Assembly (NCBI RefSeq): GCF_000027125.1
Contig: NC_017626.1
DNA: 64,000 nt
Strand: one strand, 5' to 3'
DNA from: Escherichia coli 042
GTDB taxonomy: Bacteria > Pseudomonadota > Gammaproteobacteria > Enterobacterales > Enterobacteriaceae
In this document: piece after piece, positions 25,706 through 36,918 of the stretch
How the letters are laid out: every line of letters starts with the position of its first letter
How positions within the stretch are numbered: position 1 is the first letter of the stretch
The notes under the pieces: generated by a model
What the model was told of the DNA's origin: nothing
Seen by the model: only the letters and a program-made list of their open reading frames with translations
Databases searched by the model: none
Program-made: the position numbers and the translations under genes

Positions 25706-28700
25706 ATGAGACACTTTATCTTTCAGGACGAAAAATCACATAAATTCTGGGCGGTGGAGCAACAGGGAAACGAGCTGCATATTAACTGGGGTAAAGTCGG
25801 CACTAACGGGCAAAGTCAGGTAAAAAGCTTTGCAGATGCTGCGGCGGCGGCAAAAGCGGAGCTTAAGCTGATCGCAGAGAAAACGAAAAAAGGCTATGTG
25901 GAAAATGCTTCAGCAAACGTGCATATCCCCCCCATCACCAAAGCCACTCCTGAAGTTGAAACCTCCCTTGAGAGTAAAAACAAACGCCCATGGCTGGCTG
26001 ATGATGCAGTCATTCCGGTCACTGACGATATTAATCGATTTGCTTTTCCTCATCGCTCTCGCCCCAGAGAGATCAATTATCTGTACAAAGATGGTCAAAT
26101 ATGGCAGCTCATCGCGAATAACACCAGGGCATATGATCCCGCCAACAATTACCGTTCTTATCCAGAAAACTGGCAGCAGGCTTTTGCTGAGTTACAAATG
26201 CGAGTTCAGGGTAATCAACAGACAGGGAGTGCACAATCTGATGCAGCATTGCTCTGGAGTTTCTGGAACTCTTACTCTGCAGATGAACTGGTCGATGACT
26301 TAGTCATTCGCTGTGGTCTGGAAAGTGCCGTTGAAATTGCCCTTCTCGCTCTTCAACTTAGATATAAACCAGTAAAAGGCGCAGTAACCACCATCATTCC
26401 ACCTAATCACAAAGCAGAATCGCTGCCGAGTTGGCATCAACGTCTATGTCATCATCTTTCACTCGCTTCAGAAGATGAGTGGCAACGCTGTGTAGATAAA
26501 GTACTCGCCGCCATTCCGACGCTATCCCCAGCACGGCAACCTTTTGCGGCGTTACTGCTCCCCGAATGCCCGGATATTGCCAATGCTATGGCGCTACGTT
26601 ATGCAGATCAAAACGTTCCGGCGATGACCTGGTTAAGACTGGTGGTAACCGATGACGCCGCTCTGACTACAGCAGAAAAATACGACTTCCCACCGTTGTA
26701 TCATGATTTTCGCGCTTATCTGGCAATGTTGCTGGCAAATAATGGGGTGCGCGGTGTAAGCCGGATACTTCTTGAGTTTACGGAAGAGCATTCTGACAAT
26801 CCCACTTATCTTTTCGAGCGTATCAGCGAGACTGAAGATCTTGTCAAATGGCTATGGAAAACGAATCACCCGGATGCGATTCAAATTCTGATCCTCGGTG
26901 TGATTGGCAAGAAAAAGCACCTGGAATACTTAAGCAAAGCCTGTCAAAAACATCCCGCTGCGGCTCTTGCCGCTTATGCTACTTTGCTGGCAATACATGA
27001 AGACAAAGAGTGGCGTAAAGCGCTTGTCAAACTGATTACCGCCACGCCAGAGTTAGTCACTGACGTCATTCCCAGGGTTAATGCTAAAGCGGCAGGAATT
27101 TTATCTGAATGTCGTACTCAGTTAGTCGCTGAAGAATGTGAATACGCCACTGCGGATATGTTGCCGGAGCTGTTTGTCGCTCCACCGTGGGTAATAAATA
27201 AGAAAACGAATGTAATACCCGTATTTGATTTACCGGTGCTTCCCATCCCTGCCGTCACTGACATCACGCCAGGAATTACAGAGTTAATCAGTCATACTGA
27301 CATATCCAGATTCAGTGAAATCGCGCAATTTCAGTCATCACAGCAAACCTTATTTACCGACCTGCCACTAATTGAAAAAGAAAGCTGGGAGACATCTTTC
27401 ATTCCTTTTACACCAGAACAACAAATCCTTTGGCAATTAGGTTTTAATGAATGGCTGCATTGCGAAGATGACTTACATGAAAAAAAATATATACCGCAAA
27501 GCGCTGTTGATGCGTTGTTGCGCTTTGATTTTCCAGCACTAAAAGCTGAGTTTGCGAAATATCACAACAATGCCAACAAAAGCTGGAATCTATCTGCGCT
27601 TTGTTACTTACCGGGACAACAGGCGATTTCATTTCTCAACCAAATAATCATTGAGGAGCGATATTCAGGTGAGAAAGAGATTCTGGCGGTTTTTGGTAGT
27701 ACAGCCATTCCTGCGTTTATGACCTGCTTGCAACGAGATCATCAACGACTGTGGATATTCACCCTCTTTATTGGGGCCAGTGAACTAGCCTTACCAATGG
27801 CGCAGCGGTTACAGAAAAAAATGGCTTACAAGGATGCCGTTAATTGGCTGGCAAATAACCCGCGCCATGCCACCGCCGGGCTACTGCCTTTGGCGCTGGG
27901 CAAACCGTGCCAAAATCGGGAATATGCCCGCCAGGCACTCCGCCTGCTAGTGAAATTAAACCAGCGAGAAACGATTGAAGAAATCGCCCGGAGATACAAC
28001 CAACCTGATGTTTTAGCTGCGCTGGCAACATTGTTCGATAGCGATCCGCTGGAAGAATATCCCGCTAAAATCGCCCCACCGCCCGGCTTTTATCAGTTCA
28101 CCTTATGGCGCAGACCACGGCTTAAAAGTAACAACCTGCCTCTGCCAGATGACGCTATGCGCCACCTGGGCACAATGTTGAGCTTTCCACGCGACATTAC
28201 CGCCTACGCTGGGCTGGCGACCATCAAAGAGACCTTCACCCGCGAATCACTGGCTGACTTTGGCTGGGATCTGTATACCGCATGGACAGAAGCTGGCGCA
28301 CCCGCAAAAGAAAACTGGGCATTTACTTCGCTGGGGATTCTAGGCAATGACGACACCGCGCGTAAACTAACCCCGCTCATCCGCGCCTGGCCGGGTGAAT
28401 CCCAGCATAAACGCGCGGTTTACGGGCTGGATGTGTTAGCCAGTATCGGTAGCGACATTGCGCTTATGTTGCTTAATGGCATTGCGCAAAAGATTAAATT
28501 CGTTGCATTACAGGAACATGCCAGCGACAGAATCAATATGGTCGCCGAAAATCGCGGACTGACAATGGCCGAACTGGAAGATCGCCTGGCACCGGATTTA
28601 GGGCTTGATAGCAGTGGCTCGCTGACACTGGATTTCGGCCCACGCCAATTCACCGTTGGTTTTGACGAAACTTTAAAACCTGTAGTGCGCGACGCAAACG

Positions 28701-29503
28701 GCAAAGTCCTGAAAGATTTGCCCAAACCAAACCAGAGCGATGAAAAAACTCAGGCAACTGACGCGGTTAATCTCTTCAAACAGTTGAAAAAAGATGTACG
28801 CGCCATAGCCAGCCAGCAGATTGATCGTCTGGAACAGGCTATGTGCCAGCGCAGACGCTGGACGGCAGAGCAGTTCCGCCTGTTTCTGGTGGAGCATCCG
28901 CTGGTACGTCACTTAACCCGACGGCTGTTATGGGGGGTTTATAACGATGAAAACGCCCTTATCACCTGTTTTCGCGTGGCAGAAGACAGCACTTACAGCG
29001 ATGCGCAGGATGAGTTATTCACGCTGCCAGCAGGAAACATCGGTATACCGCATGTGCTGGAAATCCCCCCTGAATCCGCCGCTGCATTCAGGCAAATTTA
29101 CGTTGATTACGAACTGCTTCCCCCTTTCCAACAGCTCGAACGTGGTAGTTACCACCTTGCTGATAACGAACGTAATGTCCATGAATTGTCACGCTGGGAC
29201 GGACGGCTCTGCCAGGCTGGTCGCATTGTCGGGCTGGAACGCAGAGGCTGGCAACGTCTGGAAGAAAGCGGCAGCGTCTATGCGATGCGCAAATCTACCC
29301 CTTATGGTGCTCTCGAACTTGAAACAGAACCTTTTTCATTAATTTATGGCGAAACGGGGTATAGCGACCTGCTGCCTGTCGAAAGCGTAAAAATCACCGC
29401 CCCTTATGATCGCTATGGTAAACAATCCTCACCCACTTTCTCCGTGCTCGACGACATCACCGCCAGCGAGCTGATTAACGACATTGAATCACTGTTTGAT
29501 TAA
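25706..29503 (+). CDS. molR: Large WGR-domain / DUF4132-like protein, paralog 1 (molR-like, intact here)
   Basis: 1265-aa uninterrupted ORF; N-terminal about 75 aa (KFWAVEQQGNELHINWGKVGTNGQ...KKGY) fits the WGR domain pattern; C-terminal two-thirds homologous to paralogs 2 and 3. Symbol is a tentative assignment. Confidence 0.75.
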   Translation: MRHFIFQDEKSHKFWAVEQQGNELHINWGKVGTNGQSQVKSFADAAAAAKAELKLIAEKTKKGYVENASANVHIPPITKATPEVETSLESKNKRPWLADDAVIPVTDDINRFAFPHRSRPREINYLYKDGQIWQLIANNTRAYDPANNYRSYPENWQQAFAELQMRVQGNQQTGSAQSDAALLWSFWNSYSADELVDDLVIRCGLESAVEIALLALQLRYKPVKGAVTTIIPPNHKAESLPSWHQRLCHHLSLASEDEWQRCVDKVLAAIPTLSPARQPFAALLLPECPDIANAMALRYADQNVPAMTWLRLVVTDDAALTTAEKYDFPPLYHDFRAYLAMLLANNGVRGVSRILLEFTEEHSDNPTYLFERISETEDLVKWLWKTNHPDAIQILILGVIGKKKHLEYLSKACQKHPAAALAAYATLLAIHEDKEWRKALVKLITATPELVTDVIPRVNAKAAGILSECRTQLVAEECEYATADMLPELFVAPPWVINKKTNVIPVFDLPVLPIPAVTDITPGITELISHTDISRFSEIAQFQSSQQTLFTDLPLIEKESWETSFIPFTPEQQILWQLGFNEWLHCEDDLHEKKYIPQSAVDALLRFDFPALKAEFAKYHNNANKSWNLSALCYLPGQQAISFLNQIIIEERYSGEKEILAVFGSTAIPAFMTCLQRDHQRLWIFTLFIGASELALPMAQRLQKKMAYKDAVNWLANNPRHATAGLLPLALGKPCQNREYARQALRLLVKLNQRETIEEIARRYNQPDVLAALATLFDSDPLEEYPAKIAPPPGFYQFTLWRRPRLKSNNLPLPDDAMRHLGTMLSFPRDITAYAGLATIKETFTRESLADFGWDLYTAWTEAGAPAKENWAFTSLGILGNDDTARKLTPLIRAWPGESQHKRAVYGLDVLASIGSDIALMLLNGIAQKIKFVALQEHASDRINMVAENRGLTMAELEDRLAPDLGLDSSGSLTLDFGPRQFTVGFDETLKPVVRDANGKVLKDLPKPNQSDEKTQATDAVNLFKQLKKDVRAIASQQIDRLEQAMCQRRRWTAEQFRLFLVEHPLVRHLTRRLLWGVYNDENALITCFRVAEDSTYSDAQDELFTLPAGNIGIPHVLEIPPESAAAFRQIYVDYELLPPFQQLERGSYHLADNERNVHELSRWDGRLCQAGRIVGLERRGWQRLEESGSVYAMRKSTPYGALELETEPFSLIYGETGYSDLLPVESVKITAPYDRYGKQSSPTFSVLDDITASELINDIESLFD

Positions 29504-36200: not shown

Positions 36201-36918
36201 GGCACTGGCCCGACTAAAAGGGCTAAAAAAAGATGCCACTCAGGTGAGCAAAAACCTGCTCCCGCGTCTTGAAACTGCCCTGCGCACCACCCGACGCTGG
36301 TCGCTGGCAGATTTTCATTCTCTGTTTGTTAATCATCCCTTTACCCGCCTGGTTACTCAGCGATTGATATGGGGTGTTTATCCGGCAAATGAACCGCGTC
36401 GTTTACTCAACGCCTTTCGTGTGGCCGCTGAGGGGGAGTTCTGCAATGCGCAAGATGAGCCAATTGACTTGCCTGCCGATGCTCTGATTGGCATTGCCCA
36501 CCCGTTAGAAATGGCAGCAGAAATGCGCAGTGAATTTGCACAGCTTTTTGACGATTACGAAATTATGCCGCCTTTTCGCCAGTTGGCACGGCGTACGGTG
36601 CTGCTCACACCTGACGAGTCAGCCAGTAATAGTTTGAATCGCTGGGAAGGTAAATCCGCTACCGTTGGGCAACTGATGGGAATGCGATACAAAGGCTGGG
36701 AGTCAGGCTATGAGGACGCATTTGTCTATGACCTGGGTGCGTACCGGCTGGTCCTTAAGTTTTCACCCGGTTTTAACCACTACAATGTTGATAGCAAAGC
36801 GCTAATGAGCTTCCGTTCTCTTCATGTATACCGTGACAATAAATCTGTCACTTTTGCCGAACTTGATGTGTTTGATTTGAGTGAGGCGTTAAGCGCACCC
36901 GACGTCATTTTCCATTAA
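33287..36918 (+). pseudogene. yehI: DUF4132-like protein paralog 3 (yehI-like), lacking the WGR domain and disrupted by a 1-nt frameshift in an A-run near the 5' end
   Basis: ATG at 33287 with SD (aaggaa) encodes MDKELPWLADNAQVELKYK then shifts frame; homologous sequence continues in frame 1 from 33343 (KLSHRSWPGEPVPVITESL...) to 36918. Adding one A to the A4 run at 33341-33344 restores a single about 1210-aa ORF. Confidence 0.6.

Follow-up and report, generated by a model that had tools for sequence, protein, structure and literature searches.

Between metG and yehK/yehL, at the same genomic site as molR and yehI in K-12-type strains, the chromosome of Escherichia coli 042 (assembly GCF_000027125.1, contig NC_017626.1) carries three consecutive large genes, here called P1, P2 and yehI. 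The stretch analysed, referred to below as the window, comprises 64,000 nucleotides (nt). RefSeq annotates all three genes as DUF4132 proteins, the NCBI label being 'WGR and DUF4132 domain-containing protein'. The genes belong to the annotated but uncharacterised MolR/YehI family, of which P1 is one further member. The initial annotation of this DNA had described three consecutive large open reading frames (ORFs). Its coordinates and lengths for P1 and P2 hold, but the third gene is out of frame and yields the proposed 1210 amino acids (aa) only after one A is added. That description did not include the yehI frameshift, the LexA box, the yehLMPQ association or the central segments that differ from strain to strain.

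Pfam profiles identified a WGR domain in P1 (aa 5-69, model positions 6-77 of 79, E = 1.1e-18) and in P2 (aa 7-67, E = 6.2e-18), and a DUF4132 domain in P1 (aa 999-1182, E = 6.5e-50), P2 (aa 977-1162, E = 8.1e-50) and yehI (aa 924-1108 of the 1180-aa ORF, E = 1.5e-46). For the yehI ORF, DUF4132 was the only Pfam match and no WGR match was returned. When the PDB was searched by sequence, P1 matched the solved bacterial WGR protein 2ra8 at its N-terminus (E = 3e-18) and, weakly, the WGR domain of PARP3 (E = 0.74); the yehI ORF matched nothing. A WGR module in P1 and P2 that the third gene lacks, and a C-terminal DUF4132 region common to all three, had been proposed from the letters alone, and both assignments are borne out by these searches. 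Inspection of the spacers agreed with the first description as well: P1 and P2 are separated by 12 nt and P2 and yehI by 9 nt, with a Shine-Dalgarno-like AAGGA/GGAAAGAG in each, in front of the following gene. Because the spacers are short, a terminator scan gave no strong site between the genes and a terminator-like hairpin follows metG upstream, co-transcription of P1, P2 and yehI is plausible. The coordinates of the features are listed in Table 1.

Table 1. Features of the array and its surroundings, in window coordinates.
Feature	Position	Strand	Remarks
metG	23523-25565		upstream neighbour of the array
metG terminator-like hairpin with T-tract	25575-25598		terminator scan
LexA (SOS) box AACTGGATAAAATTACAGGG	25679-25698	+	8 nt before P1 start codon; matrix scan and pattern match
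P1	25706-29503	+	intact ORF, 1265 aa; WGR, alpha-solenoid, DUF4132
WGR-coding homology block of P1	25706-25903	+	P2 partner 29516-29713; 89.4% nt identity
P1 central variable segment	27195-27945	+	gene nt about 1490-2240; 61-81% nt identity to L003/L005 alleles, protein 67%
P2	29516-33277	+	intact ORF, 1253 aa; WGR, alpha-solenoid, DUF4132
P2 N-terminal solenoid variable region	29666-30799	+	gene nt 151-1284; 51-67% nt identity to L004, K-12, L007, L009
P2 central variable segment	31095-31539	+	gene nt 1580-2024; 50-63% nt identity to other allele classes; flanks 93-99%
yehI (third paralog, without WGR)	33287-36918	+	3632 nt; pseudogene in 042
yehI rare central segment	34474-35197	+	gene nt 1188-1911; 42-59% nt, 38% protein identity to other alleles
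Small ORF at yehK position	36979-37284	+	101 aa; 'hypothetical protein' in strain 300444, 'protein YehK' elsewhere
yehL (MoxR-type AAA+ ATPase)	38468-39556	+	amber codon at 39164-39166
yehM (DUF5682)	39567-41846	+	intact; Pfam DUF5682 E = 3e-98 on K-12-type ortholog
yehP (VWA domain protein)	41839-42975	+	intact; annotation; VWA_CoxE/VWA_2 in Burkholderia homolog
yehQ (SWIM zinc-finger protein)	42972-44972	+	intact; Pfam SWIM aa 56-88, E = 1e-3

Mosaic identity and allelic variation

The similarity between P1 and P2 is distributed unevenly along the genes. In a blastn comparison, identity was 89.4% over nt 1-198, the WGR-coding block, and 71.6% over nt 2538-3493, with almost nothing aligned between; a second, shorter block covered the last 66 nt at the 3' end (86.4%). 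At the protein level the overall identities were 48% for P1 and P2, 34% for P1 and yehI, and 41% for P2 and yehI. Along the P1-P2 alignment, the first 50 columns were 88% identical; identity fell to 18-50% in the middle and rose again to 66-84% in DUF4132 and 87% in the last 15 residues. The first about 200 nt had been called nearly identical; the block is real, but its identity is only 89.4% over 198 nt. The strong divergence of the central regions was evident, as first proposed, and the 5' block stood out both in the identity runs and in windows of synonymous divergence, so that the genes have not diverged uniformly.

Synonymous sites separated the WGR block from the remainder of the pair. 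Codons 1-66 gave a proportion of synonymous differences (pS) of 0.36 and a synonymous divergence (dS) of 0.49, the minimum among all windows. The next lowest dS was 0.73, in the last 19 codons, and the remaining windows ranged from 0.84 to saturation, including the DUF4132 region, where the amino acids are almost as conserved as in the WGR block yet dS is high. The WGR block therefore has a younger common ancestor than the rest of P1 and P2. When strains were compared, identity in the 198-nt block was 83-89% between paralogs and 85-93% between strains within one paralog, and P1/P2 pairs from the same genome were no more alike than P1/P2 pairs from different genomes. A four-gamete test of the block found 337 of 703 informative site pairs to be incompatible, and a test of the pairwise homoplasy index (PHI) type gave p = 0.036. 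The WGR-coding block is a shared recombining pool across the copies. Between tandem paralogs of Massilia and Rhodanobacteraceae, too, the ends are conserved and the middle varies; no clear synonymous drop was found in their WGR block, and their high GC content compresses pS.

The locus was fetched from eleven other E. coli genomes for allele comparison. The initial annotation had described K-12 molR as annotated as a fragmented pseudogene, and in K-12-type strains the gene is indeed frameshifted, with internal stops. Its body is the ortholog of P2, not of P1, with 85% identity over 2966 nt to P2 compared to 74% over 1235 nt to P1. The reference for a chimera test was L004, a strain with all three genes in which the P2-type gene matches K-12-type molR at 92% identity over its full length. 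K-12-type molR agreed with P1 of L004 at 16 of the 19 differing sites in nt 7-159, and with P2 of L004 at all differing sites in nt 168-204 and at most sites beyond, which places the breakpoint between nt 159 and 168 of the WGR block. Being P1-like to nt 159 and P2-like from nt 168, K-12-type molR is a P1::P2 chimera, the product of a crossover between adjacent WGR blocks that deleted the P1 body and left a two-gene array.

The mosaic structure of the genes results from constraint at the level of domains, WGR and DUF4132 being kept and the middle left free, together with homologous recombination between copies. The initial annotation had attributed the 5' similarity to gene conversion or recent recombination. 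Recombination is supported by the dS minimum, the four-gamete test and the K-12-type chimera, but a dS of 0.49 is old, and the exchange is therefore not recent; nor is homogenisation ongoing, since sharing a genome does not make P1 and P2 more alike.

Compared to the K-12-type locus, the window contains P2 as an intact ortholog of the molR (yehH/yehG) pseudogene of the DUF4132 (PF13569) family, P1 as an extra, deeply diverged paralog (48% protein identity to P2, dS saturated), and a yehI with a rare central segment and a frameshift. Over its alignable part, this yehI is 94% identical to the K-12-type gene. Of 5426 complete E. coli genomes, 1643 (30%) contained the P1-type body, which falls into three allele classes and was absent from K-12-type strains. 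The three-gene state may predate E. coli, since an array of three copies ending in the one without WGR is also present in Klebsiella spallanzanii. The core genes flanking the array (16397-25902 and 38176-47165) were about 96-97% identical to those of the K-12-like strain L002, with a dS of 0.13 for metG. With the 12-kb query, 28 of 5,585 matching records were at least 99% identical, and the lineage of the window seems well separated from K-12.

Comparison of alleles also revealed segments that vary strongly between strains (Table 1). The windows adjoining the P1 segment were 85-97% identical, against a gene-wide background of 83-100%, and dS was 1.2-1.7 inside the segment compared to 0.10-0.41 in the rest of P1. 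The variable region of P2 at nt 151-1284 was 85-96% identical to the L003 allele, and the central P2 segment formed three classes among the sampled alleles, with 45-48% protein identity. The central yehI segment of the window was covered to at least 80% in 48 of the 5426 genomes; a search for its donor in a large protein database returned only uninformative fragments. Outside the variable segments, the same comparisons gave 74-100% nt identity, mostly above 85%, and as a baseline the last 1500 nt of metG were 94.6-97.1% identical between strains. Within the segments dS was saturated, the nonsynonymous divergence (dN) was 0.33-0.63 and the ratio dN/dS (omega) was 0.2-0.5; outside them dS was mostly 0.05-0.5. 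The corresponding values for metG were a dS of 0.13 and an omega of 0.04.

Several genes of the locus are interrupted in one strain or another. The frame of yehI breaks at the A-run 33341-33344, where one A is missing, and the longest intact ORF starts at GTG 33376 (1180 aa). Adding one A restores a 1210-aa frame from ATG 33287 that starts MDKELPWLADN, so that the restored YehI opens at the conserved PWLA motif, which in P1 and P2 comes directly behind WGR and linker. In strain 300444, the closest RefSeq relative (99.0% identical over 12 kb), the same gene is annotated as 'frameshifted'. Programmed frameshifting or phase variation at the A-run was considered and set aside: the change is confined to a single allele lineage and occurs alongside other knock-outs. 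Codon 233 of yehL is TAG in 042 and CAG in L001 and L002; this in-frame stop probably leaves the YehL ATPase inactive in 042. In strain 300444 yehL is intact, but yehM has a stop at codon 195. K-12-type strains have broken molR and yehQ genes; elsewhere, P1, P2, yehL or yehM are interrupted by stops or frameshifts, or the whole locus has been lost through IS1. The last case was observed in L010 (NZ_CP091044.1, strain STEC346), where an IS1 stands right after a 456-nt WGR remnant and is followed by yehS, so that everything from molR to yehR has been deleted. The nearby yehB usher gene of the same strain is interrupted by another IS1. P1 and P2 are intact in the window, as are many alleles of the sampled strains.

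Structure, regulation and gene neighbourhood

P1 aa 66-1265 was modelled with AlphaFold2 from an alignment of 89 homologs. The model predicted a helical-repeat body followed by an alpha/beta C-terminal module, with a predicted local distance difference test score (pLDDT) of 85.8 and a predicted template modelling (TM) score of 0.72. A separate model of aa 955-1265 reached a pLDDT of 92. In the larger model aa 66-90 are disordered and would form a linker of about 25 residues joining the WGR domain to the solenoid. A loop-rich stretch of lower confidence at about model residues 421-530 (P1 aa 486-595) overlaps the start of the variable segment (aa 497-747). Foldseek comparison of the full P1 model with the PDB returned generic HEAT/ARM solenoids (CAND1, importins), none of them significant (E at least 1e-3, TM about 0.1), and a fold search of AFDB50 returned family members only.

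PARP WGR domains bind DNA breaks; extending this to P1 and P2 is an extrapolation. The likeness to the WGR domains of PARP1, PARP2 and PARP3 (PF05406) consists of the significant Pfam match and the retained W-G core. P1 and P2 differ from these enzymes in having a WGK in place of WGR, a linker to a solenoid, and none of the PARP catalytic, helical or zinc-finger domains: Pfam detected no PARP catalytic or regulatory domain in either protein, and fold searches gave solenoid and TBP-like matches only. With NCBIfam, the WGR part matched only a Leptospira model, far below its cut-off. Similar in layout are the WGR-repeat proteins 2ra8 (Bacteroides fragilis) and LIC_11051 and LIC_12901 (Leptospira), in which, as in P1 and P2, an N-terminal WGR domain precedes a repeat scaffold; LIC_12901 combines leucine-rich repeats, WGR and DUF4132. 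The scaffold is leucine-rich in these three proteins and a helical solenoid in P1 and P2. The initial annotation had considered the role of WGR in such an array unexplained, which goes too far: NCBI annotates such genes, and the Pfam description of the WGR family names E. coli MolR.

Immediately upstream of P1, a LexA box, AACTGGATAAAATTACAGGG, was identified with a matrix built from E. coli LexA boxes. It scored 17.8 bits, the top of the 64-kb window, with the runner-up at 13.8 bits and the training boxes starting from 14.7. The site fits the pattern CTGK-N8-MCAG, and the identical 20-mer is found upstream of K-12-type molR. The runner-up, CGCTGGAATAATGGCCAGTA (31208-31227), lies inside P2, scores below the weakest training box and probably arose by chance. 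According to a review of the SOS response, following Fernandez de Henestrosa 2000 and Courcelle 2001, molR has a known SOS box (PMC6590174). BglJ-RcsB is a further activator of its promoter (PMC3950696). The published LexA-regulon data concern K-12 molR only; in the window, SOS control would reach P2 and yehI by read-through, as we infer from the spacers of 9-12 nt and from the terminator scan, which gave no strong site separating the genes. Depletion of the DNA-damage repressor DdrO in Deinococcus radiodurans strongly induces one WGR gene and one DUF4132 gene.

Downstream of the array lie yehK and the yehLMPQ genes. YehL is the namesake of one of seven MoxR subfamilies (PMC3893208). We fetched the 72 best loci from contigs taken at one genome per species; 46 of them were informative, with at least 7 kb of downstream sequence, and a tblastn survey of the 72 probed for YehK, YehL, YehM, YehP, YehQ, WGR and DUF4132 only. 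All four YehLMPQ homologs were located directly downstream in 34 of the 46 informative loci. The median distance from the last DUF4132 gene to the start of the YehL homolog (AAA_5/MoxR) is 78 nt, and one to at least four copies of the DUF4132 family precede the yehL homolog. The tblastn survey detected no YehK homolog beside the family outside Escherichia. NCBIfam gave only weak GvpN/MadB matches for YehL.

Hosts of the array together with yehLMPQ include beta-, gamma- and delta-proteobacteria, Actinobacteria and Trichlorobacter. WGR-less paralogs stood repeatedly beside WGR-bearing ones, and arrays of two to four or more copies occurred in Massilia, Duganella, Tahibacter and K. spallanzanii. 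The C-terminal 465 aa were 45-55% identical in Burkholderia, Variovorax, Massilia, Mycobacterium, Actinoplanes, Myxococcales and others, and a profile of the C-terminal module matched 7,383 representative clusters, in all of which it was C-terminal. Massilia (L049, L052, L054, L056, L066, L072, L073 and L086) carried tandem arrays of at least four DUF4132 genes, with several arrays per genome, some of which had no yehLMPQ within 10 kb; this is a lineage-specific expansion. One 659-aa protein, P0078, which shares 69% identity with the C-terminus of P1, contained both DUF4132 and DUF5682 Pfam domains. Either it naturally joins a MolR-like C-terminus to YehM or it arose by a deletion; if real, such a fusion would support a physical link between the two proteins.

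Proposed function and competing explanations

We tentatively lean, with slightly less than even confidence, towards the view that the MolR/YehI paralogs, made mosaic by constraint and recombination, serve as interchangeable sensor or adaptor subunits of an ATPase machine formed by YehLMPQ. The conserved C-terminal DUF4132 module would dock onto the machine, and the WGR domain might bind nucleic acid such as DNA ends or nicks, by analogy with PARPs. The variable body would select a variable partner or client, which the AAA+/VWA pair would then remodel, and several tandem paralogs would provide several specificities. A response to DNA damage or foreign DNA would be the most likely setting. In its association with a MoxR ATPase (YehL) and a VWA protein (YehP), which the array directly precedes in most sampled lineages, the system resembles pairs such as RavA-ViaA, CbbQ-CbbO and NorQ-NorD. 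The YehL subfamily differs from these in always being accompanied by two further large proteins (DUF5682 and SWIM) and by one to several WGR/DUF4132 proteins and, in E. coli, in its LexA control and frequent inactivation.

Several observations weigh against this proposal. Gene adjacency is the sole tie between the MolR/YehI proteins and YehLMPQ, and it is incomplete: roughly one in four of the loci sampled had no yehLMPQ in reach, most of these being arrays in Massilia, shorter DUF4132 proteins stand alone in Variovorax and Spirillospora, and in Escherichia yehK and a type I toxin-antitoxin insertion lie between the array and yehL. In P1 and P2 the motif reads INWGKVGTNGQ, with the Trp and Gly kept and the Arg replaced by Lys, and in the consensus of the homologs only the Gly and a following IGT-GQ are conserved. 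With omega at 0.2-0.5 and dS saturated, the variable segments are old haplotypes shuffled by recombination and do not testify to recent positive selection. No LexA boxes were found upstream of other beta- and gamma-proteobacterial homologs (best score 8.7 bits, compared to 17.8 bits at P1), so the family as a whole does not share SOS control. The family was absent from a phage collection and rare on plasmids. A search of PADLOC-DB 2.0 with P1, P2, yehI, YehK, YehL, YehM, YehP and YehQ gave no match at E of 0.01 or lower, and no effector-like domain was seen in the proteins of the locus. Finally, the frequent knock-outs in E. coli also fit a dispensable, decaying system.

A broader version of the sensor proposal, which we regard as somewhat unlikely, is that MolR/YehI and YehLMPQ form an undescribed, widespread five-component machine represented by thousands of clusters, in which swappable WGR-solenoid proteins would sense damaged or foreign DNA or invader proteins and pass them to a MoxR/VWA/SWIM remodelling core, with SOS switching the system on in E. 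coli. If the sensor-repertoire reading is true, a new kind of response to damage or invaders, with a MoxR ATPase as its basis, would be added to those known. molR has been included in lists of the E. coli LexA regulon since 2000, and we found no established function for it; the neglect may be due to its being a pseudogene in the standard laboratory strain. Literature searches returned no functional study of yehL, yehM, yehP, yehQ or DUF4132, and nothing on DUF5682. The window contains two intact members, P1 and P2, and comparison with other genomes reveals a recombination chimera in K-12, a third paralog in about 30% of complete E. coli genomes and an association of the family with a conserved MoxR, VWA and SWIM gene set in many phyla. 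These findings provide starting material for work on an SOS-regulated system, with domains to test, segments to swap and candidate strains with intact alleles, such as L007 (strain MEI3O-23) and L009 (strain SJ7).

A rival reading takes the genes as plain old tandem duplicates in a dispensable, decaying remnant under relaxed selection, their conserved ends reflecting only stronger purifying selection on two domains and the yehLMPQ link being meaningless in E. coli. The combination of a yehI frameshift with the yehL amber codon in 042 and with the yehM stop in strain 300444, the broken molR and yehQ of K-12-type strains, the stops, frameshifts and IS1 deletion elsewhere, and an omega of 0.13-0.30 compared to 0.04 in metG all agree with decay. 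However, P1 (1265 aa) and P2 (1253 aa) are intact, as are many other alleles, and omega is well below 1. The 45-55% identity of the C-terminal module across phyla and the recurrence of the five-gene arrangement in distant lineages also speak against a remnant, and purifying selection alone would neither lower dS in the WGR block nor yield a P1::P2 chimera. We consider decay unlikely.

Less probable still, in our estimation, is a self-contained anti-phage or anti-plasmid immunity system in which the variable solenoid recognises invader proteins and additional paralogs broaden the range. The polymorphic copy number, with the P1 body in 30% of genomes, the deeply diverged allelic segments shuffled by recombination and the expansion of paralog arrays in several lineages speak for such a system, as do frequent loss-of-function alleles and a domain of nucleic-acid-sensor type on a repeat scaffold adjoining an NTPase; the cross-phylum identity of 45-55% hints at horizontal transfer. 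Against immunity stand the PADLOC result for every component and the lack of a recognisable effector domain, as well as the location of the locus, which in essentially all E. coli lies at one constant chromosomal position flanked by core genes and not in a mobile island, and the absence of the family from phages and its near absence from plasmids. The vWA-MoxR 'ternary' conflict systems of Kaur, Burroughs, Iyer and Aravind (2020, eLife) share with the array locus an NTPase, a vWA protein and HEAT/TPR-type repeats, and their repeat component is likewise diversified. The text of that study names none of WGR, MolR, YehI, YehL or SWIM, and no VMAP or effector domain was found in the array locus; the vWA-MoxR conflict systems described by Kaur et al. 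do not include the present one.

We judge it very unlikely that the machine is a metal-cofactor or enzyme-maturation chaperone with the proteins of about 1250 aa as client-binding subunits alongside MoxR and VWA partners, as in CobN-CobS-CobT, BchH-BchI-BchD, CbbQ-CbbO and NorQ-NorD. In combining a large subunit with a MoxR-type ATPase and a VWA protein, the set does resemble chelatases and activases. Maturation chaperone is the usual description of MoxR proteins (PMC3893208). The gene name goes back to Lee et al. 1990, and such a role would fit the old designation 'molybdate metabolism regulator'. No sequence or fold similarity between CobN/BchH-type large subunits and the MolR/YehI proteins emerged. 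The three lists of called genes and the annotated E. coli flanks contained no mod, moa or moe gene, for which the tblastn of the 72 loci did not probe. SOS control, copy-number variation, variable segments and frequent knock-outs would be unusual for a cofactor pathway, and the molybdenum genes of Deinococcus did not share the response of the WGR and DUF4132 genes. A role as regulator of molybdate metabolism itself gained no support: Pfam and NCBIfam found no helix-turn-helix or other regulator domain in P1, P2 or yehI and no mod, moa or moe gene occurs where neighbours were listed.

The interval between yehK and yehL

A tandem 500-bp repeat that K-12 MG1655 lacks occupies the interval from yehK to yehL (37286-38390), with copies at 37286-37780 and 37894-38390. 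The repeat corresponds to the known zorO-orzO/zorP-orzP type I toxin-antitoxin pair (Fozo et al. 2010, PMC2887945). Each copy contains a 29-aa minus-strand ORF, MDTLTQKLTVLIAVLELLVALLRLIDLLK (37338-37427 and 37946-38035), and, on the plus strand, an OrzO-P antitoxin RNA (37673-37746 and 38281-38356; Rfam RF02083, 92 and 101 bits).

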